Program-made: the position numbers and the translations under genes
In this document: positions 43,810 through 64,000 of the stretch, piece by piece
Layout: each line of letters begins with the position of its first letter
How positions within the stretch are numbered: position 1 is the first letter of the stretch
NCBI GenBank assembly: GCA_015478645.1
Contig: JADMIL010000006.1
Location: 29,609-93,608, forward strand
DNA length: 64,000 nt
Reading direction: 5' to 3'
From: Candidatus Binataceae bacterium
GTDB lineage: Bacteria; Desulfobacterota; Binatia; Binatales; Binataceae
The notes under the pieces: model-generated
Told to the model about the DNA's origin: nothing
The model's input: only the letters and a program-made list of their open reading frames with translations
The model's database searches: none

Positions 43810-44892
43810 TCAAATGTCCCGGGCAAAAATGGCTTTCAGCTCGTGCGGCGGAACAACTTCAAGCTGCTCGTAGGTGCAATCGCGTGGTTTCTTGTCGGTA
43901 CGCCATCTGCGGAACTGCGCCATATGACGGAAGCGCGTGCCCTGCATATGCTCATATGCGATTTCCACTACTAGCTCCGGTCTGAGCGGCTCCCACGCTA
44001 GGTTCTTGCCGTGGCTCCAACGGCTCTGACTACCCGGCATCCGACGTGGTGCATCACTTGAAGTGGGCTCCGCCCACGACTTCCATGGATGATCGGCTAG
44101 AGCGTTGTTACGATAGGGAGCCAGCAATCTCACCAGCTCCTGACGGTTAATTTGCGTGAAGCTCGCGCATACGCCGACGTGTTGCAGCGCCCCCGAGCCG
44201 TCAAACAGGCCGAGTAGAAGCGAGCCGATAGCCGTGCCGTCACCGCCTTTGTGCCATCGAAAGCCAGCCACGACACAATCGCAGTCGCGCTCATGCTTGA
44301 CCTTGAACATCACGCGCTTGTCAGGCTGATAGGTGTCGGAAATCGGCTTGGCTATAACCCCGTCGAGGCCCGCGCCCTCAAAACGCCTGAACCAATCCGA
44401 CGCGACATTTAACTCACGCGTCGCCGGAGTCAGATAAATTGGCGGTACCGCACTGGCCAGCAGCGACTCCAGCTTTTCGCGCCGCTGCTCGAACGGTTCG
44501 CTCCGCCAATCGCGGTTTCCTTCGCACAGCAAGTCGAAAAAGACCATCGATGCAGGACTCTGCCGGGAAAGCAGTTTCACCCGCGAGGCCGCTGGATGAA
44601 TCCGGAGCTGCAATTCCTCGAAGTCGAGCCCATCGTTCTTTGCGACAACGATTTCACCGTCGAGAACACATCGAGCGGGCAGCTGTGCATTCAGCGGCTC
44701 GAGCAACTCGGGAAAGTATCGATTGAGCGATTTCGCATCGCGGCTCTGAATAAGGATTTCGTCCCGGTCGCGGAAGATCACCGCGCGAAACCCGTCCCAC
44801 TTCGGTTCGAAGATCCAATCTTGGCCCACCGGTAACTCGTCAATTCGCTTCGCGAGCATCGGCAGTATCGGCGGGTTCACGGGAAGATTCAT
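43810..44892 (-). CDS. ligC: ATP-dependent DNA ligase, LigC-type (about 360 aa, ligase domain only)
   Basis: Start at ATG 44890-44892 (MNLPVNPPILPMLAKRIDELP). Adenylation motif I FEPKWDGFRA, then DGEIV, LDGVIAK and KVKH motifs. Confidence 0.87.
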   Translation of the reverse strand: MNLPVNPPILPMLAKRIDELPVGQDWIFEPKWDGFRAVIFRDRDEILIQSRDAKSLNRYFPELLEPLNAQLPARCVLDGEIVVAKNDGLDFEELQLRIHPAASRVKLLSRQSPASMVFFDLLCEGNRDWRSEPFEQRREKLESLLASAVPPIYLTPATRELNVASDWFRRFEGAGLDGVIAKPISDTYQPDKRVMFKVKHERDCDCVVAGFRWHKGGDGTAIGSLLLGLFDGSGALQHVGVCASFTQINRQELVRLLAPYRNNALADHPWKSWAEPTSSDAPRRMPGSQSRWSHGKNLAWEPLRPELVVEIAYEHMQGTRFRHMAQFRRWRTDKKPRDCTYEQLEVVPPHELKAIFARDI

Positions 44893-45155
44893 ACTTCCAA
44901 CGCCAATGCGACGCGTGACCACGAGCTTTGCGGCGCTCGATCTCTCATTGAGGTGCAGGGCCGGGAACGCACGTAAGTACCGGCGGTTAACCAAGTACTA
45001 TCCGGCTGGCCGCACGCACCGTCGCAAGCACAGCCGGAGCCAGGAGTAATGGCGCTTGGAGGCACACCCAATAGATAAGTCATCGTACTTTGCGCCATGC
45101 AAGTCCCGGAACTAGCTAAAATTAAAAACAGTGCAAGTATCAACTGGTTTCCCAT
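44889..45155 (-). CDS. Small Cys-rich secreted hypothetical protein (88 aa)
   Basis: GAGG RBS 6 nt upstream. Signal MGNQLILALFLILASSGTCMA. GSGCACDGACG. Its stop overlaps the ligC start (ATGA). AT-rich 5' half. Confidence 0.4.
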   Translation of the reverse strand: MGNQLILALFLILASSGTCMAQSTMTYLLGVPPSAITPGSGCACDGACGQPDSTWLTAGTYVRSRPCTSMRDRAPQSSWSRVALALEV

Positions 45156-45258
45156 TTTAGACCTCGAAAAAGAGATGACCGACTCTGCGGTCGCCTCTTA
45201 TTGAATAAACGCTGTAAGTACATCCTTGGCTGATCTATCCACGCGACATTTTCCTGAA

Positions 45259-46002
45259 TCATCGCTTATAAGTCGCTACATGTTTAAAAGCATCGGCGAC
45301 GAGCTTCATTGGACCTTTCCCGATTCTTCCTAAACAATATTTGGCAAAAATCATAACTTCTGGATTCGGATCTTGAGAAAGCTTCTCCAAGTAATCGCGC
45401 ACCCTTGGAGTACCGATGGCGCCAAGCAGTTCCGTTGCAAACTGGCGATCCTCCGGGCTCTTGCTACCGGCCAGCCTGATCGCCTGATCCAGCCCGGCAT
45501 CACGTATTTGAGCCGAAACGTCGCCGGACCGGTGACGACTACACAAATGTAAGTAACCAATTTAAAAACTTCTATGCGCAGAAACTCGATTCCCTAAGGA
45601 AAATAATTCCGGCTCTGCAGAATAGAATTCAAACCCCTGCTTGGTCCCATCGATGATTACGATCCCGGCGCAAGAGGGCCTGTCAACGATTCCTAGTCCT
45701 GCCACCAGCGACAGAAACCCTTGACGGCGAAGATCCGCAAATTGGAACGAGCACACATACACTCCGCCCGGTTCGATAGCCGAAAAACCGCTCTTGGCAA
45801 TTTGAAGCGAACGAATAAAGCCCTCGACAACACTTTTTGCCGGCGGATTGCTGGCTAAGTTCCGTGGCGCCGTAGAGGACCAATCGGATGAGGCCAACCT
45901 CGAGCGTGGCAGCTGGATCGGAGGACGCGCCCAGACCTTCAAAGGCAGCAAGAAGAAAAAAACCGCGATGAGTATACTTAAAATTCTTATGCTCAGTTTC
46001 AT
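45259..46002 (-). pseudogene. Signal-peptide / HEAT-repeat protein gene interrupted by a single in-frame TAA (45562-45564)
   Basis: Track ORFs 45562..46071 (true ATG 46002, MKLSIRILSILIAVFFFLLPLKVWA) and 45259..45546 (TTG-initiated, HEAT-like ATELLGAIGTPRVRDYLEKLSQDPNPEVMIFAKYCLGRIG) are in the same frame. They are separated by one stop and 5 sense codons, and the second part has no RBS. Confidence 0.5.
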
Positions 46003-46152
46003 TGTGGGTATATGCGGAAGCCGCTGTCGACGCGGTAAACGAGAAGACCGAGAAATTTCCGCGCTCATCAAAGCGCGGACCGCCTGAGCAACATTATCGA
46101 CGCGAGCGGCGCAGGCATGCGCGATCGCCCGGGCACCCTCACCGGCCGCCCC

Positions 46153-47760
46153 TCAATGGGCGCCGGCGGGCGCTTTGCCGCGTGTGCGCGGAAGTAAGAA
46201 GCACATCGCCAGCCCGACCAGCATCAGGTACGCGAGCATCCGGTAGATGCTGTTGAGCGACAGGATCATCGCCTGCGCCTGCACCTGGCTGTAAAGCATG
46301 CCGAGGCCCTGCTTCTGTCCGTTGACCATCTCGTGCATGTAATTGAAAGTCATTCCGCCGGGCATGCTGGCCGGTGTGCGGCTCAGGCGCCAGGCGTCGA
46401 AGACCGTCACGTGCTCGACCAGCCGGCTCTGCTGCACCTGCTCGCGCCGCACCAGCATGGTGGTGAGCACGGAGGTGCCGATCGACCCGCCGATATTGCG
46501 TGACATCGAAAACAGGCTCGCCCCGTAGCCCATCTGCTCGCGCGGGATCGAGCTCAGCGCGGCGGCCGAGAGGTTGGGAAAGATCAGGCCCATCCCGACG
46601 CCCTGGACGATGGTCGGTCCGACGAAGTTCCAGGTCGACATGTTGAGATCGAGGCTGCCCAACTGCCAGCTTGCCAGGCCGATCAGGATAAAGCCAAAGC
46701 CGACCAGCGGCCGCGTATCGACGCCGCGCTTGGCGATACCGCCGAGAAAGAACATCGCGACCATCAGGCCGATCCCGCGCGGCGCCATCGCCAGTCCGGC
46801 CTTCGACGCGGTGTAGCCAAGCAGGCTTTGCAGGAAGACCGGATTGAGAATCTGCATGCCGTAGGCGGTAAACGTCATCATGATCAGCAGGATGGTCGGC
46901 ACGCTGAACTTGCGATTGTTGAGGATGCGCACCTGGACGATCGGCTCCGGCGTGCGCCATTCATGGACGATCAGGATGATGAAGGCGGCTCCCGCGATGA
47001 AGGAGAAGTACCAGACCCACGGGGTGGCGAACCAATCCGCGCGGTCGCCGCGGTCCATCACGATTTCGCCCATCCCGAGCGCAAGCACCAGGCAGACGAT
47101 TCCGATCCAGTCGGCGCGGCCCTGGCCTTTGAGTTTCTTCAGGTAGGGCGGATCGTGGACGAAGGTCGAGACCATGAAGGCCGCCGCGATTCCGATCGGC
47201 AGGTTGATATAGAAATTCCAGCGCCAGTTCCAGTTGTCGGTGATATAGCCGCCGACCGTCGGACCCATGATCGGCGCGACCATCATGCCGATGCCCCATA
47301 CCGCCATCGCCAGCGTCTGTTCGTTGGGCGGAAAGGTCTCCATCAGGATGGCTTGCGAGAGCGGCTGCAAGGCGGCGCCGGCGATGCCCTGGATAAAGCG
47401 GAACGCGACCATCTGGTTGAGGGTCTGCGCCGCGCCGCACAGCGCCGACGAAGCGACGAAGGTCGCGATCGAGATCATGAAGTAGCGTTTGCGGCCGAAC
47501 TGCCCGGCGATCCATCCGGTGGTCGGGATCATGATGCCGGCGGCGACCAGATAGGTGGTCACGACCCAGGTGATCTCGTCGACGGTCGCCGAGAAGCTGC
47601 CCTGCATGTGGGGCAGGGCGACGTTGACGATCGAGCTGTCGAGCACTTCGAGGATCGTGCAGAGAATTACCGACGCGGCAATGATCCATTTGCGCGCCGA
47701 TTCGGCAGCACTGTGATGAGCCGGCGCGGTGATCGCCGCCGCTGAGGCACCATCCTCCAT
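46153..47760 (-). CDS. MFS transporter, DHA2 (EmrB/QacA, 14-TMS) drug:H+ antiporter family
   Basis: LDSSIVNVALPHMQGSF, GWIAGQFGRKR, and about 14 hydrophobic segments over 535 aa. Confidence 0.9.
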   Translation of the reverse strand: MEDGASAAAITAPAHHSAAESARKWIIAASVILCTILEVLDSSIVNVALPHMQGSFSATVDEITWVVTTYLVAAGIMIPTTGWIAGQFGRKRYFMISIATFVASSALCGAAQTLNQMVAFRFIQGIAGAALQPLSQAILMETFPPNEQTLAMAVWGIGMMVAPIMGPTVGGYITDNWNWRWNFYINLPIGIAAAFMVSTFVHDPPYLKKLKGQGRADWIGIVCLVLALGMGEIVMDRGDRADWFATPWVWYFSFIAGAAFIILIVHEWRTPEPIVQVRILNNRKFSVPTILLIMMTFTAYGMQILNPVFLQSLLGYTASKAGLAMAPRGIGLMVAMFFLGGIAKRGVDTRPLVGFGFILIGLASWQLGSLDLNMSTWNFVGPTIVQGVGMGLIFPNLSAAALSSIPREQMGYGASLFSMSRNIGGSIGTSVLTTMLVRREQVQQSRLVEHVTVFDAWRLSRTPASMPGGMTFNYMHEMVNGQKQGLGMLYSQVQAQAMILSLNSIYRMLAYLMLVGLAMCFLLPRTRGKAPAGAH

Positions 47761-48112
47761 CCGTTACCCCAAAATGCCGCCGCGGCCGGCGCAAATTATC
47801 ACGCGGGCGGGCGCATCACGCATTCTTAACACTGCAAAGACTTATCGGCGATCGGGCGGCAGGCCTAGCCGGGAACTCCGGTCGCGTCCGGCGGTCCGGA
47901 GGTGGCGGGAAGCGATCCTCGGCTGGCGCGGCGCCGCCGCTAACCAACCAGCGAGCGTAACACGCAACCGCCTTTAGTCAACCATCGGAGACGGTGGCAT
48001 GGGCGGCAGCGATCCGGGTCCGATTTCCGGGGAGGGAAGCGCGCTTTACCGATTGTCGATCGAGGCGAGCCTCAGGAGGTCGACGGAGGCGAGCGCGGCC
48101 GGATGGGGCGGT

Positions 48113-48355
48113 CTACCGCGATTGCATCGAGAGCGCGACGGACAGCCCGATCGGCCGCTGATTCGCGGCGGATCGCGTCATGGGGGCGGGCGTCGTATGA
48201 CTCATCGAGCCGATCGTCATCAGGCTGGGGACGAGTCGCGTGCCGTAATCGCGCAGGTCGAGGGCGAGCAGCGCGAACAGGAAAACCAGGACGGCGAATC
48301 CCAGGGTGAGCAGTTGGCGCTGCTCTTCGATCATAATTGCCCGAGCCCTATCCAT
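48113..48355 (-). CDS. Small hypothetical membrane protein (80 aa)
   Basis: AAGGAG RBS 9 nt upstream of the ATG. One clear TM helix LLTLGFAVLVFLFALLALDL. No family recognised. Confidence 0.35.
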   Translation of the reverse strand: MDRARAIMIEEQRQLLTLGFAVLVFLFALLALDLRDYGTRLVPSLMTIGSMSHTTPAPMTRSAANQRPIGLSVALSMQSR

Positions 48356-49090
48356 CTTCGGTCGCTCCTTTCGCGGCGCGCTGCCCGAGCGCGTTAATTA
48401 ACGCTCGCCGGCGTGCGGTGAGAATCATTCGCTCTCGCTTGAACGCATGAATCATGTGCGAATGACGTGCCAAGGAGCACGGCCGCAAACTAATCGAAAA
48501 CCCCAACGAAATCAGAGCGGCTATGAACTAAGCCGGAGACCCGATGCAATTCCGTCGATCGCGATGTAGCCGGCTGAAACAATTCTGTTTCGCGGATGGA
48601 ACATCGCCGCAGGGCCGTTCCGAGCGCTCGCGTGCGGCACTCGCGTAGCGGATGAGTGGTCGGACGAGGCCAGCGCCGCGACTACTATTTGCTATCCGAT
48701 CGCTACCGCGAGGCGACTGCGCCCTTGCGGCGATCCGCACGGCAGGGGCTCGGTGGCGATGGGCGCTAGCGTCGGCGGCGGGCTGAACGTCGGATGAATG
48801 TTGCAGAGCAGCCACCTCGAGGGCGACCTTGCAACGTAAATTTGCGTCAAGTGGCGATTGGATGACCGCAACCGACTCTCAGTTGCAATTCTGCGCCAGA
48901 TATTCTCAGCAATAGCACAATTGATGCTATTTTATCGGGACGATAACTCTTGTCTCCAACTTCATCCAATGAAATTCAGATGCGCGATGCTGGTCGAGGC
49001 ATATTTCAGTTAATCGATCCTTGCGCAACGCTGGAACACCTCTTGCTCACTGCCTTATCCGCCGAACACGCATCGGTCGGGGGCAAGATT

Positions 49091-49936
49091 ATGAACCTGA
49101 AACTCGAAGAACTGCGCAAGCGACTGCTTGAACCGGTGCCGACGTCAAATGGCTCTGGAACCTCGGTCTACAAGCGGAGTTCGGCCGAGATCTTCGTCGC
49201 CAGCCAGAAAACCGGTGAAGCGGTCAGGAACGCCGCTAGCGAGACGGCACCGGCCAGCGTGATGGTTGAGAGTGCCACGCATTACGAGCCGCTCATCGCT
49301 CCGCCGATCGGTAACGATTATGTCTCTGCGGCCAACACGCCGAACGGCGTGCGCGAGGCCGTGCTGCGATATGCGGAAAAGGCCACGATCAATTCCACCA
49401 TCGGGGAAGATGCCATGGATTCGAACAGCCAGTACCAGGTCGCCCAGGCCGTCGCCAAAGTCTTCGAGCAGGTCAAGGTCTTCGAAGATCGCTTTGCCGA
49501 ATTGACCAAGACTTTCGAGCCGGTCGAGTGTCTGGCGCAGTCCGCGGCTAAATCGTTCACGCCGCTGCGCACCTTTCAGGAGCAGCTTGCACAGCTCTCG
49601 CGATCGTTCGAACCGATGCGGACCTTCCAGGCCCAGCTCGCCGAACTGGCGCAGAGCTTCGAGCCGATGAAGGGCTTGCAGCGTCAGCTCGCGCTGCTCT
49701 CCGACGCTTTCGAAATCAATATCGGGCAACTGGTGCGCTCGCTCGATCCGGCGCGCGAATTTCAACTCTCGCTGCTCAAGCTGGCGCGTTCGTTCGAGCC
49801 GGCGATCGATCTGCAGAGCGATTTCGCGCTGCTCGCGGACACCTTCCGCAGCGCGCGCCCCGAGTTGGCGATCAATAGCAACGGCATTGGTAATGGCAAC
49901 GGCGTCGCGCCGGCGATCGCCGACGCTCAGCATTAA
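49091..49936 (+). CDS. 'FEP-repeat' protein, paralog A (unrecognised family)
   Basis: Start at ATG 49091 (MNLKLEELRKRLLEP). The C-terminal ~130 aa are ~17-residue repeats: FEPVECLAQSAAKS / FTPLRTFQEQLAQLSRS / FEPMRTFQAQLAELAQS / FEPMKGLQRQLALLSDA / ... / FEPAIDLQSDFALLADT. Collinear with 59353..60297. Confidence 0.75.
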   Translation: MNLKLEELRKRLLEPVPTSNGSGTSVYKRSSAEIFVASQKTGEAVRNAASETAPASVMVESATHYEPLIAPPIGNDYVSAANTPNGVREAVLRYAEKATINSTIGEDAMDSNSQYQVAQAVAKVFEQVKVFEDRFAELTKTFEPVECLAQSAAKSFTPLRTFQEQLAQLSRSFEPMRTFQAQLAELAQSFEPMKGLQRQLALLSDAFEINIGQLVRSLDPAREFQLSLLKLARSFEPAIDLQSDFALLADTFRSARPELAINSNGIGNGNGVAPAIADAQH

Positions 49937-50003
49937 GCCGACGCCCGGCATCAAGCCAACGTATCCGGTGGTGGTCTTAAGGTAAGGGTGGGGGATACGT
50001 TGC

Positions 50004-50042
50004 CGCGCCGCACGGTGATCGCCGTGCGGCGCGTTTTCTTTT
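50004..50042 (+). terminator. Rho-independent terminator of FEP-repeat paralog A
   Basis: 12-bp perfect stem CGCGCCGCACGG (50004-50015) / CCGTGCGGCGCG (50022-50033), 6-nt loop, then TTTTCTTTT. Confidence 0.8.
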
Positions 50043-50211
50043 GGCGCCGCCGCTCACCGGCGCGGACAATCCGCTGAGCGTCTTCTTCAAATCATTCGCA
50101 CATCAATCCGCGCGTGCGACCCCGACGTTCAGCGTTGGACAGCGACCGGCGCAGTTTCGTAGAGTCGCCGGAGATGAAACGATCGCGCCGCGGACGATGG
50201 CCGCAAGCCCC

Positions 50212-51381
50212 ATGTTGAATATGAAAGATCGCACGGCGATCGCCGGCGCAGGCAGTTCCGTCTACGGCCGGCGCCTGATGCGCAGTCCGATCGATCTTGC
50301 CGCCGACGCGCTGGCCGCCGCACTCGACGACGCCGGCCTGGGCCGCGCCGAACTCGACGGCCTGGTGGTCAGCTTTGGCACGCCGATCGGCGCCGACGGC
50401 GACACCATCGCGCAGGTTCTCGGGCTTAAGCTGCGCGCCTTCAACCAGACCTGGGCGCACGGCCGCTTCACCGCAAGCTGTATCCAGTGGGCGGCCCTGA
50501 TGGTCGCGGCGGGTATGGCCAGCGCCGTCGCCTGCATGGCGTCGGTGAGCTTCTCGGGGCTGCGCAAGCCGGCGATGGGCGGGGCGGGCGATGCCGAAGG
50601 CGCGCGCGAAGCCGGCGGCAGCCACGGCCAGGATCCGGCGTACGGCATGACCTCGCCCGGCGCCGGCGCGGCGCTGGTCGCACGGCGCTACTTCGAGCGC
50701 TACGGCGCGACCGCCCGCGACCTTGCCGCGATCCCGGTCGCGTTTCGCAAACACGCCGCGCTCAACCCCGGCGCGATGATGCGCGAGCCGATGTCGATCG
50801 ACGACCATCAACGCTCGCGCTTCATCTGCGAGCCGCTGCGGCTGCTCGACTATTGCCTGATCAACGACGGCGCGGCCTGCGTGATCGTGACCAGCGCGGA
50901 GCGCGCGCGCGATTTGAAAAAGCCCCCGGTGTACATCGGCGGGATGCAGCCGCTGCCGGCCGGACGCGAGGAGTTCATCTGGGCCTATCCCGGCTTCGGC
51001 GTGCTGCAGCAGGCGGTCGCCGACTATGATGCCGGTCTGCAACCGGTCTACAAAATGGCGGAGGTGGCGCCCAAAGATCTTGACGCGCTGTTCAGCTACG
51101 ACGCCTTTTCGATCCTGCCATGGATCGCGCTCGAGCGCTTTGGCTTCTGCAAGCCGGGCGAAGCGGCCGGCTTCACCGCCGGCGGACGGATCGAACTGGG
51201 CGGCGCGCTGCCGATGAACACCAACGGCGGACTGCTCTCCGAGGGGCATATCATGGCCTGGAATCATCAGGTCGAGATCGTGCGCCAGTTGCGCGGCGAA
51301 TGCGGCGCGCGCCAGATCAAGGACGCGGCGCTGATCCAGTGGGCCAACTGTTACGGCGATTCGTTGATCTATCACCGCTGA
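50212..51381 (+). CDS. Thiolase-like protein (SCP-x / lipid-transfer-protein type)
   Basis: MLNMKDRTAIAGAGSSVYGRR... (start at 50212 or 50221). Thiolase-fold C-terminus NTNGGLLSEGH...GxN. Followed by a DUF35 gene, the usual partner. Confidence 0.78.
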   Translation: MLNMKDRTAIAGAGSSVYGRRLMRSPIDLAADALAAALDDAGLGRAELDGLVVSFGTPIGADGDTIAQVLGLKLRAFNQTWAHGRFTASCIQWAALMVAAGMASAVACMASVSFSGLRKPAMGGAGDAEGAREAGGSHGQDPAYGMTSPGAGAALVARRYFERYGATARDLAAIPVAFRKHAALNPGAMMREPMSIDDHQRSRFICEPLRLLDYCLINDGAACVIVTSAERARDLKKPPVYIGGMQPLPAGREEFIWAYPGFGVLQQAVADYDAGLQPVYKMAEVAPKDLDALFSYDAFSILPWIALERFGFCKPGEAAGFTAGGRIELGGALPMNTNGGLLSEGHIMAWNHQVEIVRQLRGECGARQIKDAALIQWANCYGDSLIYHR

Positions 51382-51418
51382 GCGATCGAACGAGCCGCCA
51401 GCCAAGCCGGATGCGACG

Positions 51419-51844
51419 ATGAAGATGGCCAACCCCAACTACAGCAAACCGCTGCCCGCGATCTCGGAGCTCAATCGGCCCTACTGGGACGGGCTTAAGA
51501 ATCATCGGTTGCGCCTGCAGCAATGCGCGGCGTGCGCCACGATCTGGTCGCCGCCGGCGCCGCTATGCCCGCGCTGCTGGTCGCGCGAGATCGTCTGGAC
51601 CGATCTGAGCGGCCGCGGCCGGGTTAATTCGTGGGTGATCTTCCATCAATCGTATTTCCGCGGCTTCGAGGGCGAACTGCCCTACAATGTCGCCGAAGTC
51701 GAACTCGACGAGGGACCGCGCCTGCTGACCAACCTGGTCGGCGTCGACCACGCCGCGATCCGCGCCGGGATGCGCGTCGAGATTGTCTTCGACGAAGTGA
51801 CCGAGGCGATCACGCTGGCCAAATTTCGCCCAATCGCCGAGTAG
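51419..51844 (+). CDS. DUF35 Zn-ribbon / OB-fold protein
   Basis: YWDGLKNHRLRLQQCAACATIWSPPAPLCPRCWS...GRGRVNSWVIFH...PYNVAEVELDEGPRLLTNL. Confidence 0.82.
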   Translation: MKMANPNYSKPLPAISELNRPYWDGLKNHRLRLQQCAACATIWSPPAPLCPRCWSREIVWTDLSGRGRVNSWVIFHQSYFRGFEGELPYNVAEVELDEGPRLLTNLVGVDHAAIRAGMRVEIVFDEVTEAITLAKFRPIAE

Positions 51845-51969
51845 CCGCCCGCGCGCCGAATGAACCGCGCCGGGATGCCGGTTGGACAATCCGCGGCACA
51901 TTTTGTAGTTTAACTCCAAAGCCCATTCTGGCTGATACGCTTTTTCGTCGTCACGGGGAGGTGCAATTG

Positions 51970-53223
51970 ATGGCCGACAAACCGCGCATGCTTGAAGGTT
52001 TCCGCGTTCTGGATTTCACCCAATTCGTCGCTGGTCCGACCTGCACCCGGCTGCTCGCCGAGATGGGCGCCGAGGTGGTCAAACTCGAACTCGCACCCGA
52101 GGGTGATCGGGTCCGCGGCGGCGGGCTTAAGCCGATGAAGCCCGAGCTCAAGGATTCCAGCCACAGCACCTATTACATGCAGCACGACCACAGCAAGCTC
52201 AGCCTGGCGATCGATATGAAGAAGCCCGGCGCGCGCGATCTGATCATGTCGATGCTGCCGAAGTTCGACGTGCTGGTCGAAAATTTCGCCCCCGGCGTGA
52301 TCAAGCGCCTGGGCTTCTCCTACGAGGACGTGAAAAAGGCTAATCCGCAGATCATCATGTGCTCGATCTCGATGGCCGGGCAGACCGGACCGCTATCGGA
52401 TAAGGCCGGCTACGATTATATCGGGCAGGCCTACGCCGGCATCACCGACGGTATCGGCGAGCTCGATCGCGCGCCGTCGGTCACCACCATGGCGATCGGC
52501 GACGTCTCGACCGGCGTGGCGGCCGCGATGGCGGTGGGTTTCGCGCTGATTCATCGCGAGCGCACCGGCGAAGGCCAATACCTCGACGCCTCGCTGCTCG
52601 ACACCTATTTCCATATGCATGAGGCCAACGTGCCGCAGGTTTCGCTGCGCGGCGAAAAGTACCGGCCGACGCGCAACGGCTCACAGCATCCGGGCGGCGG
52701 TCCGACCGGCATCTATCATTACCGCGGCGAGCAGTACGTCTATCTGTGCGTGCCGACGGCGCATCAGTGGGTCCAGCTCTGCCGCGCGATGGGGATGCCC
52801 GATCTGGCGACCGATCCGCGCTTCAAGCATGCGCGCGGCCGGCGCGACAACAACGCCGAGCTGCAGCGGATTATCGAGGACTGGCTCGCCACGCACGACC
52901 AGCGCGACGACGCGATCGCGGCGCTGGACAAAGAGCGCGTGCCTTGCGCTCCCGTGCTGACGGTCAACGAGGCGGTCAACCATCCGCATCACAACGAACG
53001 CAAGACCGTGCGCTGGATCGCAGATCCGCTGCTCGGCAAGGTCGCGATTCCCGCCGTGCCGGTCAAGTTTTCGGCGTGGCCCGATCGCATGGAACTGCGT
53101 TCGGCGCGCCTGGGCGAGGACAACGAGCGCGTGCTGCACGATTTTGCCGGACTGTCGAAGGAGCAGATCGAGAAGCTCTACGGCGAGGGCGTGCTGGTCC
53201 GGGACGCGACGCTGCCCAAGTAG
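51970..53223 (+). CDS. Family III CoA-transferase (CaiB/BaiF)
   Basis: ATG 51970 after GGGGAGG. MLEGFRVLDFTQFVAGPTCTRLLAEMGAEVVKLE...DVLVENFAPGV...AGYDYIGQAYAG. Confidence 0.88.
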   Translation: MADKPRMLEGFRVLDFTQFVAGPTCTRLLAEMGAEVVKLELAPEGDRVRGGGLKPMKPELKDSSHSTYYMQHDHSKLSLAIDMKKPGARDLIMSMLPKFDVLVENFAPGVIKRLGFSYEDVKKANPQIIMCSISMAGQTGPLSDKAGYDYIGQAYAGITDGIGELDRAPSVTTMAIGDVSTGVAAAMAVGFALIHRERTGEGQYLDASLLDTYFHMHEANVPQVSLRGEKYRPTRNGSQHPGGGPTGIYHYRGEQYVYLCVPTAHQWVQLCRAMGMPDLATDPRFKHARGRRDNNAELQRIIEDWLATHDQRDDAIAALDKERVPCAPVLTVNEAVNHPHHNERKTVRWIADPLLGKVAIPAVPVKFSAWPDRMELRSARLGEDNERVLHDFAGLSKEQIEKLYGEGVLVRDATLPK

Positions 53224-53280
53224 CGGCTACCGGCCGGCCGACTGACTATTCGTTTCGGCTGACGACTGACTAATCAAACA

Positions 53281-53320
53281 GGGGCGGTGCGGGTTCTCCC
53301 GCTCCGCCCCTGACTTTTTT
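53281..53320 (+). terminator. Rho-independent terminator after the CoA-transferase gene
   Basis: GGGGCGGTGCGGG ttctc CCGCTCCGCCCC hairpin followed by TGACTTTTTT. Confidence 0.7.
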
Positions 53321-53321
53321 C

Positions 53322-53372
53322 CGCCGGGACGCGCGCGGCGCCGCGGTTAGCGCCGCCTCTTGCCGCCGGACG
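53322..53372. repeat. 51-bp direct repeat, left copy (duplicate of the 3' end of the MaoC gene at 54000)
   Basis: CGCCGGGACGCGCGCGGCGCCGCGGTTAGCGCCGCCtCTTGCCGCCGGACG matches 53975-54025 at 50 of 51 positions. Confidence 0.92.
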
Positions 53373-53389
53373 AACGGCATCATGACCCG

Positions 53390-53701
53390 TCAGGCCGCAT
53401 GCCCGCGCGGTTGCACCTGCCGTTCGACCTCCTCTTCGAGTTCTCCGCGCGTGCTTTCAAGGTCGTAATGGGCCTGAAGGTTGATCCAGAATTCCGGACC
53501 AGTGCCAAAGTAGCGTCCCAGGCGCAGCGCGGTGTCGGGGCTGATACCGCGCTCGCCCTGTACGATGGCGTAGAGCCGGTTGCTCGGTACTCGCAGCGCG
53601 AGCCCGAGCGCATTGATCGTCATGCCGAGCGGCTTGAGAAATTCCTCGTTCAGGATCTCGCCCGGAGGGGCCGGCGGAAGCTGCCGTTTGTTTCGCGCCA
53701 T
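53390..53701 (-). CDS. higA: HigA-family antitoxin (XRE HTH)
   Basis: PPAPPGEILNEEFLKPLGMTINALGLALRVPSNRLYAIVQGERGISPDTALRLGRYFGTGPEFWINLQAHYDL. Confidence 0.82.
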   Translation of the reverse strand: MARNKRQLPPAPPGEILNEEFLKPLGMTINALGLALRVPSNRLYAIVQGERGISPDTALRLGRYFGTGPEFWINLQAHYDLESTRGELEEEVERQVQPRGHAA

Positions 53702-53720
53702 TGTCCGCACTCCATGATGC

Positions 53721-53900
53721 TCAAGCGTAATGATTGGTGATCTCGACGTCGTATGCGTCGGGCGGAGTCCATCGAAAGCAAAGCCGCCACTTATCGTTGA
53801 TGCGCAAGCTGTGCTGGCCGCTGCGATCGCCCGTCAGCTTCTCCAGCTTGTTACCCGGCACCGCGACGAGCACCGCCAGCGATAGAGCCGCGTCGAGCAT
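53721..53900 (-). pseudogene. higB: N-terminally truncated HigB/RelE-family toxin remnant (59 codons)
   Basis: My translation: MLDAALSLAVLVAVPGNKLEKLTGDRSGQHSLRINDKWRLCFRWTPPDAYDVEITNHYA. This matches the C-terminal two thirds of ~92-aa HigB toxins. TAA lies two codons upstream of the ATG. Below the track's 60-aa cutoff. Confidence 0.6.
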
Positions 53901-53974
53901 CTGAAGTTAAACGTCAAGGCACCCGCAAATACAGTCCGCAGTCCTGGATTTCCAGGTTGCGGCCACCACCGGTT

Positions 53975-54025
53975 CGCCGGGACGCGCGCGGCGCCGCGGT
54001 TAGCGCCGCCGCTTGCCGCCGGACG
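53975..54025. repeat. 51-bp direct repeat, right copy (native 3' end and stop of the MaoC gene)
   Basis: Same sequence as 53322-53372 with one mismatch. Contains the stop codon (54000-54002) and the last 8 codons (...PSGGKRRR). Confidence 0.92.
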
Positions 54026-54764
54026 GCCGCTGGCCTTTGGACGGCTTGGCGAGCTTGAGCAGTTTGCCCGGTTTGGCGCGATTGACGGTTTTGACCGATT
54101 TCAGTTTGCGCCCGCCCGCGGCCGCTTTGACGGCTTTCAGCGCGACCGATTTTTTCGCCACCGGCAGCATCCGCATCACCGCGCGCGCGCCCGACCGCGA
54201 CGATCCGACCGACTTCATCCGCGTCCGCGCCGGCGGCGCCGCGGCCTCGTCCTCAAGCTCGAGTCCGGCGGTGGTAAACGATCGCTTCTTGATCAGCGCG
54301 CGCCGCTCGCCCTCGAAGACCGTCTCGCCGCGCTGATTCACACCCCAGTGCTTGAAGTGCACTTCGCCGACTTCGCGATGGCCGCGCAGTACGTCCGCAC
54401 TATCGTTTTTGCCCAGCACCTCGGTGAACGCGTAGAGCGTGTCGCCGTGGATCACCGAGATGCGAAAGCGGACCTGGTCGAGCGCGACCTCTTCGACCGC
54501 CTGCTCGCCCGTATCCTGCATCGCGAGGCCGATGACCAGCGAGGCGGTGACGCCGCCGAAGGTGATGCGATGTTTTTGCGCGGCGACGCGTTCGGCCAGA
54601 TCCTCGTTGAAATGAAGCTGCGCGGTATTCAGCACGAGATTGGTCAGCAGGACGTTTTCGAGCGCCTCCATGGTCTTGCCGCGCGCATGCTCATAGACGT
54701 CGCCGACGATGAAATCCTCGTAGTAATTGCCGCGCCCGGTCAGCGCCGCCGCGTCAATACTCAT
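54000..54764 (-). CDS. MaoC-like (hot-dog) dehydratase with ~75-aa Lys/Arg/Ala-rich histone-H1-like C-terminal tail
   Basis: Start at ATG 54762-54764 (MSIDAAALTGRGNYYEDFIVGDVYEH...), an ATGA overlap with the ACAD stop. Tail KKSVALKAVKAAAGGRKLKSVKTVNRAKPGKLLKLAKPSKGQRPSGGKRRR. Confidence 0.8.
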   Translation of the reverse strand: MSIDAAALTGRGNYYEDFIVGDVYEHARGKTMEALENVLLTNLVLNTAQLHFNEDLAERVAAQKHRITFGGVTASLVIGLAMQDTGEQAVEEVALDQVRFRISVIHGDTLYAFTEVLGKNDSADVLRGHREVGEVHFKHWGVNQRGETVFEGERRALIKKRSFTTAGLELEDEAAAPPARTRMKSVGSSRSGARAVMRMLPVAKKSVALKAVKAAAGGRKLKSVKTVNRAKPGKLLKLAKPSKGQRPSGGKRRR

Positions 54765-55915
54765 TCGCCACCTCCTCCGAGCAGCCGATCGGAAATGATC
54801 CGCAACTGGATTTGCGAGGTGCCCTCGAATATCTTGGTCAGCCGCGCGTCGCGCCAGTAGCGCTCGATGGGGAAATCTTTCGTATAGCCATAGCCGCCGT
54901 GGATCTGGAGCGCGTCGCTGGTCACCCGCTCGGCCATCTCGGAGGCGAAATACTTGACCATCGAGGCCTCCTTGTCGCAGCGCCGCTTGCTGTCGACCTC
55001 GGTCGCGACGAAGTACATCAACTGGCGCGCCGCCTCGATATTGGCGGCCATGTCGGCCAGCTTGAAGCGAATCGCCTGGAACTCCGCGATCGGCCGCTTG
55101 AATTGCACGCGCCGCCCGGCGTAGACGATCGAATCCTCCAGCGCGCCGCGCGCCAATCCGATCGCGCGGGCCGCCGTATGCACGCGGGCAAGCTCCAGAA
55201 ACGACATCATGCTGTAAAAACCGCGGCCCTCTTTGCCCACCATCGTGGTCGCCGGGATGCGGAAGTTGTCGAAATGCAGGTCCCAGGTCTTCCAGCCGAA
55301 ATAGCCAATCTTGCGGATCGGCGAGCCGCTCACGCCCTCGGGCAGCGCGCCGCGCTCCTTCTCGATCAGGAACTGGGTAATGCCGACGTGGCGGCGCTTT
55401 TCCTCCGGCGGCGAGGTGCGCGCGAACAGATGGATAAAGTCCGCGCCGTCGGCAAACGTGCACCAGGTCTTGGCCCCGTTGATCACGTAGTAGTCGCCGT
55501 CGCGCGTGGCGCGGCAGGCGACGTTGGCGAGGTCCGACCCGGCGTCGGGCTCGGAGAGCGAAAACGCCCCGAGGAACTCGCCGCGCGCCATCCGCGGAAA
55601 GTACTTGCGCTTCTGCTCGAGGCTCGGGTCGCCGTAGATGCCGTTGCCGCGCGCGATAATGCTCGCGACGCTCATCCAGCCGCGCGCCAGCTCCTCGGCC
55701 ACCAGCGCATACTCGAACGCGCCCAGCCCCAGGCCGCCAAATTCCTCGGGAATCAGGATGCCGAAGTAGCCCAGCTCGCCCATCTTGTTGCGCAGATCCA
55801 TCGGGATCTCGCCTTCGACCGGGTCGAGCTTGTTGGCCACCGGCAGCACTTCGTTGATCGCGAAGTCGCGCGCCGCCTGCTGAATCATCGTGCGCTCTTC
55901 TGTCATGAAGCTCAT
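54761..55915 (-). CDS. Acyl-CoA dehydrogenase
   Basis: EERTMIQQAARDFA..., GAFSLSEPDAGSD, YVINGAKTWCT, QIHGGYGYTKDFPIERYWRDARLTKIFEGTSQIQ. Confidence 0.92.
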   Translation of the reverse strand: MSFMTEERTMIQQAARDFAINEVLPVANKLDPVEGEIPMDLRNKMGELGYFGILIPEEFGGLGLGAFEYALVAEELARGWMSVASIIARGNGIYGDPSLEQKRKYFPRMARGEFLGAFSLSEPDAGSDLANVACRATRDGDYYVINGAKTWCTFADGADFIHLFARTSPPEEKRRHVGITQFLIEKERGALPEGVSGSPIRKIGYFGWKTWDLHFDNFRIPATTMVGKEGRGFYSMMSFLELARVHTAARAIGLARGALEDSIVYAGRRVQFKRPIAEFQAIRFKLADMAANIEAARQLMYFVATEVDSKRRCDKEASMVKYFASEMAERVTSDALQIHGGYGYTKDFPIERYWRDARLTKIFEGTSQIQLRIISDRLLGGGGE

Positions 55916-56424: not shown

Positions 56425-56500
56425 ATGCGGTGCTCCGTCGTCATCGTAATATAGTCATATAGTCAGTCGCACATCCCGTTATATATCAGTTGCCACGATA

Positions 56501-57306: not shown

Positions 57307-57408
57307 GCCGTGCGTCGCGCCTGACGGAATTGATCGCGCCGCCGATGCGTCCGCCGGGGCTGAACGCGGCGGTGGGAGTCAGGCGCCGCGATCGATTATA
57401 GTTGCGGC

Positions 57409-59352: not shown

Positions 59353-60297
59353 CTAATGCGCGGCCGCGGATTCGACCTCGGCGCCGTTGGCAGACGTCCC
59401 GGGGCGCGCGGCCGGACGCGCAAATGACGACTGCAACTCACTGAAGCGATCCTGCAGCTCGCCCGCCTGGTCAAACGCGATCGCGAGTTGCTCGAGCCGC
59501 TCGCGGAACTGCTTGGCCGGCTCGAGCGCCTGCACCAGTTCCGCCAGATGGTTCTCGAACGAGTCGCCCAACTGCGACACCTGCTCGCGCAGCCCCGTCA
59601 TCGGCTCGAAGGTCTCGGCGAGCTGCGCCAACAGCACTTGGAACGCGCGCAGCGGCTCGAAGGAACGCGCCACCTGCTGCATCTGCTGATGAAACGCGCG
59701 CAGCGGCGCAAACACCCGCGCCACCGAATTGCCCATCCGCTCGACCTGCTCAAAGGTCCGCGTCAGATCGTCGAAGTGGAGATGAAAGGCCTTGGCCGGT
59801 TCGAAGACCTTGGCCACCGCGTCGCTCAATTCGTTCGGATTCTGGCCGTCGATGTTGCTCGGCGCGGCGCTCGCGGGTGCTGCCGCATTGCTGCTCGCGG
59901 GCGCGGGGGAGGTTGCGGCCTCGCGAGCCGCGGCGGGTAGCGATGCGGATTCGGCGACGCGCGGCGCGATTGGCTCAGGCGCGGATGGCGCCGGGATCGG
60001 GGCTGATTCCGGGACTTTGGAAAATTCTGGCGAGGCGGGCGCGGCCTGCGCCATCGGCGCCTCGGGGGCCGGCGCGACAATGGGTCGCGCTTCGACCGGC
60101 GGCGCCTCGTCGATCGTGGCGGGTTGCATCCGCGGGCGCGGTGCAAAGGGCGACTCGGCTCCTCGGGCGGTAAGCGCGTCTCCGGCCCGGCCGGTCACAA
60201 CCGTCACCTCGCTCGCCCCCGCATCTCGCGCTCCCGCCGCTGGGGTTGCGGACTGTTGCAGGAGCCGCTTGCGAAGTTCATCGAGCTTTAGACTCAT
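59353..60297 (-). CDS. 'FEP-repeat' protein, paralog B (unrecognised family)
   Basis: MSLKLDELRKRLLQQ, an Ala/Pro-rich linker, then AVAKVFEPAKAFHLHFDDLTRT / FEQVERMGNSVARV / FAPLRAFHQQMQQVARS / FEPLRAFQVLLAQLAET / FEPMTGLREQVSQLGDS ... Position-for-position parallel to paralog A. Confidence 0.78.
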   Translation of the reverse strand: MSLKLDELRKRLLQQSATPAAGARDAGASEVTVVTGRAGDALTARGAESPFAPRPRMQPATIDEAPPVEARPIVAPAPEAPMAQAAPASPEFSKVPESAPIPAPSAPEPIAPRVAESASLPAAAREAATSPAPASSNAAAPASAAPSNIDGQNPNELSDAVAKVFEPAKAFHLHFDDLTRTFEQVERMGNSVARVFAPLRAFHQQMQQVARSFEPLRAFQVLLAQLAETFEPMTGLREQVSQLGDSFENHLAELVQALEPAKQFRERLEQLAIAFDQAGELQDRFSELQSSFARPAARPGTSANGAEVESAAAH

Positions 60298-60620
60298 GAC
60301 AATTCCCCGGAGGTGGTTGCAAAACCGTGAGAAAGCGGAGCAAAAGACGTTCCATCCGTAAGCCTTGGCTGGACGGGAGGCGTCGCGGAGGGCGAATTTG
60401 CGCCTTTAGGACTAATATCAACTGAAATAAACCAACCTTCGCCCGAGTGCTCAGCGACGCTTGATCGATAGTTTACGCAGCGATATGCCATCCGATGCGT
60501 TGCGGAATCGCGCATTGGGTCTCCTCAATGCAACAGGAAATGACCAAAAACAAACTTTGAGTGGTTGATTTTGTCATAATGAGTCAAATCTAGTGATTTC
60601 ATTGATTGACCTGAATTTTA

Positions 60621-60649
60621 ATTATAAAACTAAGAAAAGCATCATACAA
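60621..60649 (-). promoter_or_regulatory. Candidate sigma70 promoter for FEP-repeat paralog B
   Basis: On the minus strand: TTGTAT (60644-60649), 17-nt spacer, perfect TATAAT (60621-60626), within a 27-32% G+C stretch. Implies a roughly 315-nt leader. Confidence 0.4.
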
Positions 60650-60874
60650 GCAACAATACGCCAGTGAAACAGTCGAAGGTCTCGATTTGGTACAACCGGG
60701 GCAAGAGATCCCGATTGATCAGCCAATCCGTCCGTGCCTGGAGCCGACGTCGCCTGCTTTTGCTTGAAATTCCGAGGGCGCGTAATCGTCCGGCTGGGGT
60801 ATGAATCGGGGAGCTCGGCTGCACGGCTGGGCGATACGTCCCCGCCGCCACTAGATCAGATCGGCGCGGCCAGC

Positions 60875-61763: not shown

Positions 61764-64000
<2,237 letters not shown>

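Follow-up and report, generated by a model that had tools for sequence, protein, structure and literature searches.

The window analysed here, a stretch of 64,000 nucleotides from a Candidatus Binataceae bacterium, contains two real paralogous genes, A and B, of a family with tandem F-E-P (FEP) units that, as far as the searches below reach, appears to be without known relatives and limited to Binataceae-type MAGs. Both genes have sigma-54 promoters, which suggests inducible proteins of a signalling pathway that act as a helical coat or scaffold. It is tentatively proposed here, with a little less than even confidence, that the proteins are cytoplasmic and amphipathic, are made on induction, associate with themselves to coat or scaffold a lipid surface, and carry a docking peptide on a tether. 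The two genes are as follows:

49091..49936, + strand: CDS of paralogue A, 281 aa plus stop (ORF translation).
59353..60297, - strand: CDS of paralogue B, 314 aa plus stop (ORF translation and alignment to A).

Both ORFs exist and translate as given in the preliminary description of this DNA, which had also recognised 59353-60297 as a second copy with a common N-terminal peptide and repeat layout; its strand (-) is added here. The product of A is 100% identical to 'MAG: hypothetical protein IVW56_03685 [Candidatus Binataceae bacterium]' and starts at the same Met used by its homologues. A and B can be aligned end to end (34% identity, E=6e-47), free of gaps in the N-terminal 13 and the C-terminal 150 residues. 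A longer start of A (in-frame TTG, 48950) was rejected because all homologues begin with MNLKL and the promoter lies 3' of that codon; also discarded was a 73-aa ORF (60294-60515, - strand) overlapping the start of B, which is not conserved, has no Pfam match and contains the sigma-54 promoter. Long spurious ORFs are common in GC-rich DNA and many overlap the region of A and B, as would be expected if the two were chance ORFs of such DNA or functionless low-complexity repeats. However, this explanation, which retains virtually no probability, is already refuted by the conservation of the homologues, hundreds of which keep the start, length and layout, and by an omega far below 1 in both conserved modules; promoter, ribosome-binding site and terminator are all present as well.

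The sequence search gave 163 matches, and the family comprises about 250 (246) representatives among 1.84 billion, of 80-401 aa and all labelled hypothetical. In the GTDB species genomes there are 36 family loci, all in MAGs labelled Binataceae, Deltaproteobacteria or similar, with several paralogues per genome, and every placeable homologue comes from a MAG labelled Binataceae or with an older Deltaproteobacteria-type label. The family is under purifying selection, with omega of 0.12-0.34 in the C-domain and about 1 in the tail. Searches of Pfam, NCBIfam, PDB sequences and Foldseek gave no significant or curated-threshold match to a characterised family for A or B, in agreement with their earlier listing as an unrecognised family; a confident match of that kind and a loss of conservation in the repeats were both looked for, and the repeats proved to be conserved. 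Scans of A, B and 24 C-domains against Pfam, NCBIfam, PADLOC and PHROGs returned, among the matches listed, sub-threshold coiled-coil noise only (Spectrin_Anc-1, DASH_Dam1, SpiroCoCo, JetC, tape-measure), and the sole PDB sequence match was a designed antiparallel coiled-coil bundle (E=1.9e-5). Foldseek gave 0 matches with the full-length model and, with the C-domain model, a best E of 0.22 to non-significant antiparallel coiled coils (chemoreceptor, SMC arm, iSH2). When a diversified profile of the C-domain was run against a large database in a second search, no fusions, Pfam domains or informative names came up, and the literature on 17-residue repeats or Binatia yielded nothing about the FEP family.

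The family protein is predicted to be soluble, cytoplasmic and built of three parts, a short N-terminal peptide, a linker and a repetitive helical C-domain:

49091..49132, + strand: N-terminal peptide of A, MNLKLEELRKRLLE, aa 1-14, with a predicted helix at 3-13 (alignment, omega, AF2).
49133..49420, + strand: linker of A, aa 15-110, variable and predicted disordered, with a short conserved helix at aa 86-100.
49421-49855, + strand: conserved helical C-domain of A, aa 111-255, which encloses the F-E-P units.
49463..49843, + strand: eight F-E-P units of A, aa 125-251, spaced 17-14-17-17 then 17-11-17-17 (lag-17 z, consensus, AF2).
60256-60297, - strand: N-terminal peptide of B, MSLKLDELRKRLLQ (alignment to A).
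Within 59353..60297, - strand: linker of B, aa 15-150, Pro/Ala-rich.
59425..59805, - strand: eight F-E-P units of B, aa 165-291 (lag-17 z, gap-free alignment to A).

A and B have in common the almost invariant N-terminal peptide M[NS]LKL[ED]ELRKRLL, in which M1, K4, L5, E7, L8, R9, L12 and L13 are conserved at 90% or more in the homologue alignment, and which no other ORF of the DNA examined was found to carry. Its omega is 0.02-0.07, with synonymous sites saturated. It has four basic and three acidic residues, a muH of 0.30 and a mean hydrophobicity of -0.37. The linker that follows differs in length and sequence among homologues, with 30-44% identity to orthologues versus 56-81% for the C-domain, and the AF2 model of A has pLDDT <50 at residues 17-86 and 102-109. 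The N-terminal peptide most likely docks onto one conserved partner. Some other ideas for its role, or for that of the protein, were set aside: neither the shell genes expected with a microcompartment encapsulation peptide nor a ParA-like gene, expected with a ParA-activating peptide, were seen, the match to an ESCRT-III MIM-like motif is partial, and the DxxxQ motif of a CheZ-type phosphatase is lacking.

The units of A start at residues 125, 142, 156, 173, 190, 207, 218 and 235 and those of B at 165, 182, 196, 213, 230, 247, 258 and 275, so that the spacing 17-14-17-17-17-11-17-17 is the same in both, bearing out the position-for-position identical layout of the preliminary description. Its tandem 17-residue FEP units hold as a repeat (lag-17 z of about 10, pooled consensus) but not as uniform 17-mers, one unit having 14 and one 11 residues. 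The lag-17 BLOSUM score reaches z=10.5 in A and z=9.1 in B versus 500 shuffles; in the self-comparison of A and B the significant lags were 17, 14, 28, 31, 34, 45 and 48, and no 11- or 22-residue periodicity was found in this lag analysis. The unit consensus pooled from 40 homologues (numbers are percentages) is F72-E69-P72-[MALV]-[KR]72-x-[FL]94-Q67-x-Q63-[LF]86-A-x-L90-[AS]79-x-[TAS]. The two halves of the C-domain are homologous to each other (35% identity, E=4e-9).

The AF2 model of A is helical at 3-13, disordered at 17-86 and again helical at 111-254, with a break at each Pro (pLDDT 80-94), and the C-domain modelled alone forms a long helical hairpin with its turn at the unit 4/5 boundary; as tertiary models these are weak (pTM 0.26 and 0.40, five models spanning pLDDT 53-74). 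Pro recurs at position 3 of most units, where AF2 breaks or continues the helix depending on the model. Together with the consensus and the hydrophobic moments, this upholds the earlier view of the units as amphipathic helices broken or kinked at each Pro. Every unit is amphipathic, with a moderate muH of 0.26-0.51, a range equally in keeping with helices packed against each other in a soluble bundle. In a hand-drawn helical wheel of the unit consensus the hydrophobic face is about 160 degrees wide, with K/R of unit position 5 at its boundary and E2/E9 at the polar centre. The hydrophobic spacing is heptad-like (3-3-4-3-4), and across the whole C-domain the hydrophobicity has a coherent peak at about 3.46 residues, with a moment of 0.345 at 104 degrees versus 0.03-0.08 at 98-100 degrees and no domain-wide signal at 3.6-3.67 residues; this domain-wide periodicity is a weak discriminator because the 17-residue repeat itself forces a peak near 5/17. 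Single units have their best angles at 100-107 degrees, except the short 11-residue unit at 124 degrees, angles that allow for helix packing and surface binding alike. The C-domain carries a net negative charge (-3.5 in A and -6.8 in B, pI about 5), so that binding to anionic bacterial membranes is not favoured. The maximum 19-residue Kyte-Doolittle hydropathy is <=0.95, and no signal peptide was found in A or B, the N-terminus being a charged helix, MNLKLEELRKRLL.

Tandem amphipathic helices punctuated by proline, in which basic residues border the hydrophobic face and acidic ones occupy the polar centre, also characterise the exchangeable apolipoproteins (ApoA-I/A-IV/E) and the 11-mers of perilipin and synuclein; the units had been compared before with the repeats of apolipoproteins and perilipins. 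However, the FEP unit has 17 residues (one 14, one 11) and not 11 or 22, its hydrophobic period is 3.4-3.46 and not 3.67, there is no signal peptide, and the family is bacterial and found in one lineage only. PF01442 was not matched by A or B at E<=1, nor was it among the best 25 of the 94 Pfam families matched by 24 C-domains at E<=0.1. The resemblance is thus generic, there being no 11- or 22-residue periodicity, signal peptide or profile match.

Each gene appears to be monocistronic, as had been described, with its own predicted sigma-54 (RpoN) promoter and an intrinsic terminator at its end:

49032..49047, + strand: sigma-54 type -24/-12 element of A, TGGAACACCTCTTGCT, 59 nt 5' of the ATG.
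60339..60354, - strand: sigma-54 type -24/-12 element of B, TGGAACGTCTTTTGCT, 57 nt 5' of the ATG.
60355..60874, - strand: non-coding region upstream of B, with an AT-rich tract at about 60540-60700 (26-44% GC).
50004..50043, + strand: intrinsic terminator of A, a 13-bp stem (50004-50033) with 11 G-C pairs, then the T-run TTTTCTTTTG.
59304-59275, - strand: intrinsic terminator of B, ATCCGCT-loop-AGCGGAT then TTTTTTT; the same hairpin is also called on the + strand.

Promoters of the sigma-54 class have GG at -24 and GC at -12 with a spacing of ten bases, within TGGCAC-N5-TTGC placed a short and constant distance before the gene, and by its sequence each of the two elements can be assigned to it. 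The pattern TGG[CA]A[CT]-N5-TTGC (TGGMAYN5TTGC) has two matches only on both strands of the 64-kb window, namely those at -59 of A and -57 of B. An equivalent element is present at -52 to -61 of the A orthologues, and with at most 2 mismatches to TGGCAC-N5-TTGC one is found at -42 to -65 in 34 of 38 family genes versus 5% of random 120-nt segments; four B-type loci have no recognisable -24/-12 element. In a third paralogue type (C/D-type) the element is invariant, preceded about 200 nt 5' by an AT-rich tract and an invariant palindrome, GTTGCG-N4-CGCAAC, a candidate upstream activator site. These promoters, like the B-side regulatory cluster described below, had been missed in the preliminary description.

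That description's strong terminators stand, on the stem and T-run of A and the hairpin and TTTTTTT of B. Its long AT-rich upstream regions stand in full for B only, where the intergenic region has 577 bp and 50-nt stretches as low as 26-44% GC; the region of A is long (about 735 bp to a probable small gene) but AT-rich only in the proximal ~150 nt (38-50% GC vs a background of 63-70%). Since they carry -24/-12 promoters, these long regions can be read as enhancer-dependent promoter regions, and that of B is presumed to provide the enhancer and DNA-bending region. Upstream of A and B no strict IHF consensus, no activator site, whether individual or shared, and no convincing inverted repeat was recognised, this DNA has no conservation with orthologous loci except a small minus-strand ORF, and Rfam gave no RNA family over 44000-64000.

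On the B side the window includes two signalling genes:

60875-61834, - strand: response-regulator protein, directly 5' of B (Pfam Response_reg match).
61764-63965, - strand: hybrid histidine kinase, upstream of B, running towards the window end.

The hybrid kinase is orthologous (56-60% identity) to the one upstream of B-type genes in related loci (L021, L023, L031, L042), where the order is enhancer-binding protein (bEBP), CHASE3/PAS kinase, 80-aa ORF, hybrid kinase and B-type gene. The bEBP near B-type genes is NtrC-type (Response_reg, Sigma54_activat and HTH_8); no bEBP gene was found within the window, nor close to genes of the A or C/D type. At 7 loci an MlaC paralogue that stands alone (Pfam E=3e-47) and has a sigma-54 promoter of its own is divergent from B-type genes or their bEBP cluster, and the C/D-type is next to mlaA-C-D-F-E in 16 of 16 loci, in a convergent and not operonic arrangement. 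Some indirect support for a role at a lipid surface comes from this proximity to MlaC and the mla operon; since all genomes are from one lineage, the conserved synteny may reflect relatedness only.

Between A and B lies a cluster for acyl-CoA metabolism (thiolase-like, DUF35, CoA-transferase, ACAD and two MaoC hydratases), and this is one of the points that would suit a strict storage-inclusion coat of the phasin, perilipin or apolipoprotein kind, whose FEP repeats would spread flat over PHA granules or over droplets of neutral lipid or wax ester formed in carbon excess, the paralogues coating the same inclusion. Proline-punctuated amphipathic helices with Phe/Leu faces, several monocistronic paralogues per genome with strong terminators, and a sigma-54 control that would suit nutrient-limitation signals point the same way, and the phasins (PhaP/PhaF/PhaI) and lipid-droplet coats are likewise small, acidic, helical and amphipathic, with several paralogues per genome that are often monocistronic and strongly regulated. 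Nevertheless, such a coat is considered unlikely. No apolipoprotein or perilipin profile is matched, and neither A nor B matched PF09361, PF05597, PF09602 or an NCBIfam phasin model at E<=1, which leaves the phasin-type likeness of the preliminary description as an analogy only. The 11-/22-residue periodicity and a 3.6-3.67 signal across the C-domain are lacking, phaC, phaR and WS/DGAT were not identified among the annotated genes flanking A and B or in the annotated related loci, and the genomic survey of the Binatota does not mention storage polymers (PMC8262859). Moreover, the regular 17-mer FEP repeat and the invariant N-terminal peptide are not phasin features, and a phasin would not need an invariant, tethered docking peptide.

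The signalling genes are also what would be expected of a non-lipid scaffold, adaptor or feedback regulator, in which the C-domain is a soluble antiparallel coiled-coil hairpin or oligomerisation module and the N-terminal peptide docks onto a signalling protein, for example a receiver or the bEBP AAA+ domain, or in which the protein is a PopZ-like hub. We hold this to be possible, at somewhat under one chance in three. The heptad-like spacing with its coherent 3.46-residue period, the AF2 hairpin, the antiparallel coiled coils among the (non-significant) Foldseek neighbours and as the sole PDB sequence match, the invariant terminal peptide on a disordered tether, and the B-type gene directly 3' of a bEBP and multi-receiver phosphorelay all argue for it. 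Against it, the signalling neighbours accompany the B type only, while the A and C/D types bear the same peptide without them; one identical docking peptide across several paralogues is unusual for pathway-specific regulators; and Pro every 17 residues is atypical of a stable long coiled coil. Such a protein would exert negative feedback, the way PspA acts on PspF, or serve as a tether in the manner of CheZ, FliM and SspB. PopZ-type and McdB-type hubs show the same order of parts, in which a brief conserved helix at the N-terminus is followed by a disordered linker rich in Pro/Ala/Glu and then by a helical module for self-association at the C-terminus; however, no sequence relationship to them was detected, no ParA-like or polarity genes are nearby, and the FEP C-domain is much longer and repetitive.

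For the preferred reading, a coat or scaffold at a lipid surface, PspA/IM30/Vipp1 offers close parallels: a sigma-54-dependent promoter type with a long upstream region (the PspA system having the bEBP PspF), an acidic, all-helical, coiled-coil-type product of roughly 220-300 aa, an N-terminal helix distinct from the body, and a genomic link to envelope or lipid genes. PspA has a dedicated bEBP; in the FEP family the -24/-12 element is present and an NtrC-type bEBP adjoins B-type genes only, in related genomes. The differences are that PF04012 was not matched by A or B, nor was it among the best 25 of the 94 families matched by the 24 C-domains, that Foldseek of the C-domain against the PspA rod is non-significant (E=3.6, probability 0.20), that the FEP N-terminal helix is charged and not membrane-seeking (muH and mean hydrophobicity as above), that FEP proteins have a disordered linker of 100-140 residues and Pro every 17 residues, and that pspBC-like partner genes are absent. 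By these comparisons, the FEP family would not be a member of the apolipoprotein, phasin or PspA families; the protein resembles PspA or a phasin by logic, not homology, as a sigma-54-induced helical coat.

In the proposed mechanism, a signal sensed by the two-component phosphorelay would activate the NtrC-type enhancer-binding protein, which would turn the genes on. The C-domain, whose 145 residues would make 4+4 proline-punctuated amphipathic helices with a Phe/Leu-rich face, would self-associate as a helical hairpin or coiled coil and line a hydrophobic surface facing the cytoplasm, that of the inner membrane or of a lipid inclusion. There the tethered N-terminal peptide would recruit or regulate its partner, the linker acting as a fast-evolving disordered tether. 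We infer the activation by the B-adjacent bEBP, the self-assembly, the lipid-surface binding and the docking of the peptide. A more speculative and rather improbable extension is that FEP proteins are a new bacterial class of hydrophobic-surface or membrane-remodelling coats, with no sequence relationship to PspA/ESCRT-III, phasins or apolipoproteins and co-induced with an MlaC-type lipid carrier by a sigma-54/NtrC-type phosphorelay, whose 17-residue proline-kinked helices wrap a curved lipid surface while the N-terminal peptide recruits one partner, in a lineage-specific envelope-lipid stress or lipid-inclusion system of uncultured Binatia.

The Binatia are abundant in soils and sediments, have never been brought into culture, and are predicted to use hydrocarbons and C1 compounds. 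The FEP family, being conserved, multi-copy and provided with a regulatory handle in its sigma-54 promoters, the nearby enhancer-binding protein and phosphorelay, and the co-regulated MlaC paralogue, is a defined entry point into an inducible response of this group, and about 250 'hypothetical protein' clusters could be brought under one family annotation with a predicted RpoN-dependent promoter. Should the C-domain bind lipid surfaces, the family would be an independent addition to the few known helical lipid coats (apolipoproteins, perilipins, phasins and PspA); if it does not, the family would still illustrate clearly how a tethered docking peptide can be combined with a repetitive helical module.

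Two paralogous genes for proteins with FEP repeats, A and B, were found in the window, as the preliminary description had reported, except that the second copy is on the minus strand:

49091-49936, plus strand: ORF A, 281 aa, N-terminal sequence MNLKLEELRKRLL
59353-60297, minus strand: ORF B, 314 aa, N-terminal sequence MSLKLDELRKRLL

The products align over their full length (34% identity, E=6e-47), having the identity concentrated in the N-terminal 13 and C-terminal 150 residues, both of them gap-free. When BLOSUM62 scores were autocorrelated and compared with 500 shuffles, lag 17 gave z=10.5 (A) and z=9.1 (B), and lags 11 and 22 were not significant. The repeat units start at these residues:

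A: 125, 142, 156, 173, 190, 207, 218, 235
B: 165, 182, 196, 213, 230, 247, 258, 275

The starts give the same spacing in both paralogues, 17-14-17-17-17-11-17-17, so the shared layout with 17-residue periodicity was described correctly, but only six of the eight units reach the full 17 residues. Pooling the units gives the consensus F-E-P-[MALV]-[KR]-x-[FL]-Q-x-Q-[LF]-A-x-L-[AS]-x-[STA]. The two halves of this repeat region, the C-domain (17-14-17-17 and 17-11-17-17), align to each other (35% identity, E=4e-9), and the domain is an old 4+4 duplication.

The family is narrow and its genes are real. Among 5.8 billion clustered proteins, 163 relatives were found, none of them informatively named or with a Pfam domain; the best relative of A is 100% identical ('MAG: hypothetical protein IVW56_03685 [Candidatus Binataceae bacterium]'). 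A profile search of all 1.84 billion 50%-identity representatives retrieved 246 proteins of 80-401 aa, and when one genome was scanned for each GTDB species, 36 loci emerged, every one in a MAG labelled Binataceae or carrying an older label (Deltaproteobacteria, uncultured delta proteobacterium). The 40-member alignment shows a near-invariant N-terminal peptide (N-peptide), a linker variable in length and sequence, and a well-kept C-domain; in some distant members the repeats are retained with different N-termini. Pairwise Nei-Gojobori comparisons with seven orthologues of the A type and six of the B type gave omega values, rough because synonymous sites are near saturation, of 0.02-0.07 for the N-peptide, 0.12-0.34 for the C-domain, 0.2-0.55 for the linker and about 1 for the C-terminal tail. 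The C-domain is thus under purifying selection in related genomes, and since the synonymous sites of the N-peptide are saturated, conservation there is at the level of the protein, not of the mRNA. At the tip of the otherwise neutrally evolving tail, A has AQH (residues 279-281) and many members have [AVIL]-Q-H, or A-[RH]-N in the C type, which may be a terminal recognition motif. Some genomes hold at least three or four paralogues, as a third copy, with a short linker and an N-peptide that has diverged (MSSKLEELRRRV), follows the B-type gene directly in tandem (locus L033, 9122-9778, plus strand; also L026, ~9299-9679).

The earlier statement that the family is unrecognised was upheld. Neither a confident match to a family nor a lack of purifying selection, either of which would have told against the preliminary description, was found. 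Searches of Pfam, NCBIfam, PADLOC and PHROGs returned only sub-threshold coiled-coil noise, and the sole PDB sequence match was a designed antiparallel coiled-coil bundle (E=1.9e-5). With Foldseek against PDB the full-length model had no match; the C-domain matched a chemoreceptor, an SMC arm and PI3K iSH2 (best E 0.22) and the PspA rod (E=3.6), all generic long antiparallel coiled coils. A further database search, using a diversified profile of the C-domain, turned up no domain fusions. By these searches the family is unannotated and without detectable relatives; as regulated helical proteins, amphipathic or coiled-coil, its members are of a familiar kind, and what is distinctive is the 17-mer repeat with a fixed 14 and 11 in the 4+4 layout, together with the invariant N-peptide.

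The protein is soluble and three-part, with no signal peptide or membrane segment (maximum 19-residue hydropathy 0.95), and A and B are acidic (pI about 5.1). AlphaFold2, run with the 40-sequence alignment, gave for A a short helix (3-13), disorder (17-86), a helix (86-100) and C-domain helices at 111-141, 143-155, 157-172, 174-189, 191-217, 219-234 and 236-254 (pLDDT 80-94), with one-residue breaks adjoining prolines; the full-length pTM was low (0.26). The C-domain alone was modelled, with only moderate confidence (pTM 0.40; five models spanning pLDDT 53-74), as a long helical hairpin turning at residues 188-190, the unit 4/5 boundary. Large hydrophobics occupy unit positions 1, 4, 7, 11 and 14 (spacing 3-3-4-3-4), and on a hand-drawn helical wheel of the consensus they form a face of ~160 degrees, with K/R at position 5 on the edge and E2/E9 opposite. 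The analogy drawn before with apolipoproteins and perilipins is only generic: these proteins and synucleins have an 11/3 periodicity as their signature, which is ruled out here, as the hydrophobic moment of the whole domain peaks sharply at 104 degrees (3.46 residues) and is flat at 98-100 degrees, although a peak near 5/17 is imposed by any 17-residue repeat. Because of this, and because the best angles of individual units are 100-107 degrees (the short 11-residue unit, at 124 degrees, excepted), single helices could still bind a surface.

The key feature overlooked by the preliminary description is predicted sigma-54 control. When the 120 nt 5' of the start codons were lined up for all members, nearly all contained TGG[CA]A[CT]-N5-TTGC with a GG-GC gap of exactly ten bases, the -24/-12 signature of RpoN-dependent promoters. 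With both strands searched, this pattern occurs only twice in the 64-kb window:

49032-49046, plus strand: sigma-54 -24/-12 element of A, 59 nt 5' of the ATG
60340-60354, minus strand: sigma-54 -24/-12 element of B, 57 nt 5' of the ATG

When the sequence is shuffled, the whole window yields 0.54 matches on average, and the chance of both falling at the same short distance from two paralogues would be negligible. The literature consensus for sigma-54 promoters, TGGCAC-N5-TTGC, which was not derived from the alignment, is matched with at most two mismatches, always between -42 and -65, upstream of 34 of 38 genes, compared with 5% of random 120-nt segments of the same DNA (0.7% with at most one mismatch). 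In the third paralogue type (C/D), the element is invariant in ten genomes while the remaining intergenic region barely aligns. About 200 nt 5' of it, an invariant palindrome, GTTGCG-N4-CGCAAC, is accompanied by a second one, GCTAAT-N6-ATTAGC, and by an AT-rich tract, as is classic for enhancer-dependent promoters. The first palindrome, with a variable spacer, lies ~252-268 nt before the family ATG, just after lipA (L010-L017, L028, L037); it is a candidate binding site for an NtrC-type enhancer-binding protein (bEBP), or may instead be the lipA terminator hairpin. Such a layout accounts for the 'unusually long AT-rich upstream regions' noted before, a description that stands for B but in A applies only to the promoter-proximal ~150 nt. 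Upstream of A and B neither an activator site nor, with Rfam, an RNA element was found. Between A and the MFS gene, in a gap of 1.3 kb, is an 80-aa ORF (48113-48355, minus strand) with a hydrophobic N-terminal half and no Pfam match, whose first ~40 residues are kept in L001 and L002 (58-63% identity) and L003 (32%); it probably encodes a small membrane protein, and the true non-coding region 5' of A is thereby cut to ~735 bp. A 73-aa ORF at 60294-60515 (minus strand), whose stop overlaps the ATG of B (ATGA), is probably not a gene, being unconserved, without a Pfam match and containing the sigma-54 promoter.

Synteny defines at least three paralogue types:

A type: divergent from a DHA2-type MFS transporter (10/10 loci)
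B type: convergent with an OPT transporter (most B-type loci)
C/D type: downstream of lipB-lipA, convergent with mlaA-C-D-F-E (16/16 loci)

No family gene is co-transcribed with these neighbours, and each is provided with a promoter and a terminator of its own; the genes are monocistronic and under selection. In the window and at least three other genomes, an A-/B-type pair lies on one contig, 10-16 kb apart in opposite orientation, with a conserved acyl-CoA metabolism cluster and a HigBA pair in between. In the window this cluster (50041-56424) encodes SCP-x-type thiolase-like, ChsH2-type OB-fold/zinc-ribbon, family III CoA-transferase, acyl-CoA dehydrogenase and two MaoC/mesaconyl-CoA-hydratase-like proteins. 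The thiolase start listed as TTG at 50041 falls inside the T-run of A's terminator (50034-50043), so the true start is probably further downstream. Inside the cluster, a toxin-antitoxin pair is encoded at 53390-53900 (minus strand). Its toxin is HigB-like (PF05015) and, with an ORF of only 59 aa, may be truncated; its antitoxin is a HigA-type HTH protein. L021 and L040 have the pair in the same position, while L001 and L023 keep only a 29-residue HigA remnant.

The B-type genes lie directly downstream of a signalling cluster on the same strand:

Gene 1: NtrC-type bEBP (Response_reg, Sigma54_activat, HTH_8; GAFTGA motif)
Gene 2: CHASE3/PAS histidine kinase
Gene 3: 80-aa ORF
Gene 4: hybrid kinase with Hpt domain
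In the window, 61764-63965, minus strand: hybrid kinase upstream of B, running towards the window end
In the window, 60875-61834, minus strand: extra receiver protein

For B in the window, the bEBP gene would be located past the window end. Another hybrid histidine kinase (36959-38905, plus strand) is ~37-39% identical to the kinase upstream of B. Adjacency to the bEBP and phosphorelay is seen in related genomes, and the neighbouring bEBP would activate the family promoters. The invariant N-peptide, held on a flexible tether, would serve as a docking motif. As an alternative to the lipid-surface proposal below, and with somewhat lower probability, the protein may be a coiled-coil scaffold of a non-lipid kind or a feedback regulator docking onto the signalling proteins.

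Related genomes also place the family beside Mla genes. In seven loci a stand-alone MlaC paralogue (PF05494, Pfam E=3e-47), ~50% identical to the MlaC of the operon, is arranged divergently to the B-type gene (~450 bp between promoters) or to the bEBP cluster; it has a near-consensus sigma-54 promoter of its own (TGGCATCGCAATTGCC). To our knowledge, sigma-54 control is unusual for a periplasmic lipid carrier. Copies on the minus strand lie at:

L024: ~7507
L027: ~7494
L029: ~6375
L032: ~7487
L023: ~1228
L031: ~949

With the mla operon beside the C/D type, the family thus meets Mla-type genes in two unrelated genomic places. The C-domain would self-associate and/or line a hydrophobic surface on the cytoplasmic side, and here it is tentatively proposed, by analogy, that the protein could be an inducible amphipathic coat or scaffold at a lipid surface, resembling PspA and phasins in logic while being a member of neither family. 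Against this proposal, the C-domain is net acidic, hydrophobic moments are moderate, the AlphaFold2 tertiary models are weak, and the C/D type adjoins the mla operon convergently, within a single lineage. A strict storage-granule coat seems improbable, as does some function outside these readings. The coat or scaffold proposal concerns a well-defined orphan family, open to test, from an uncultured but abundant lineage.
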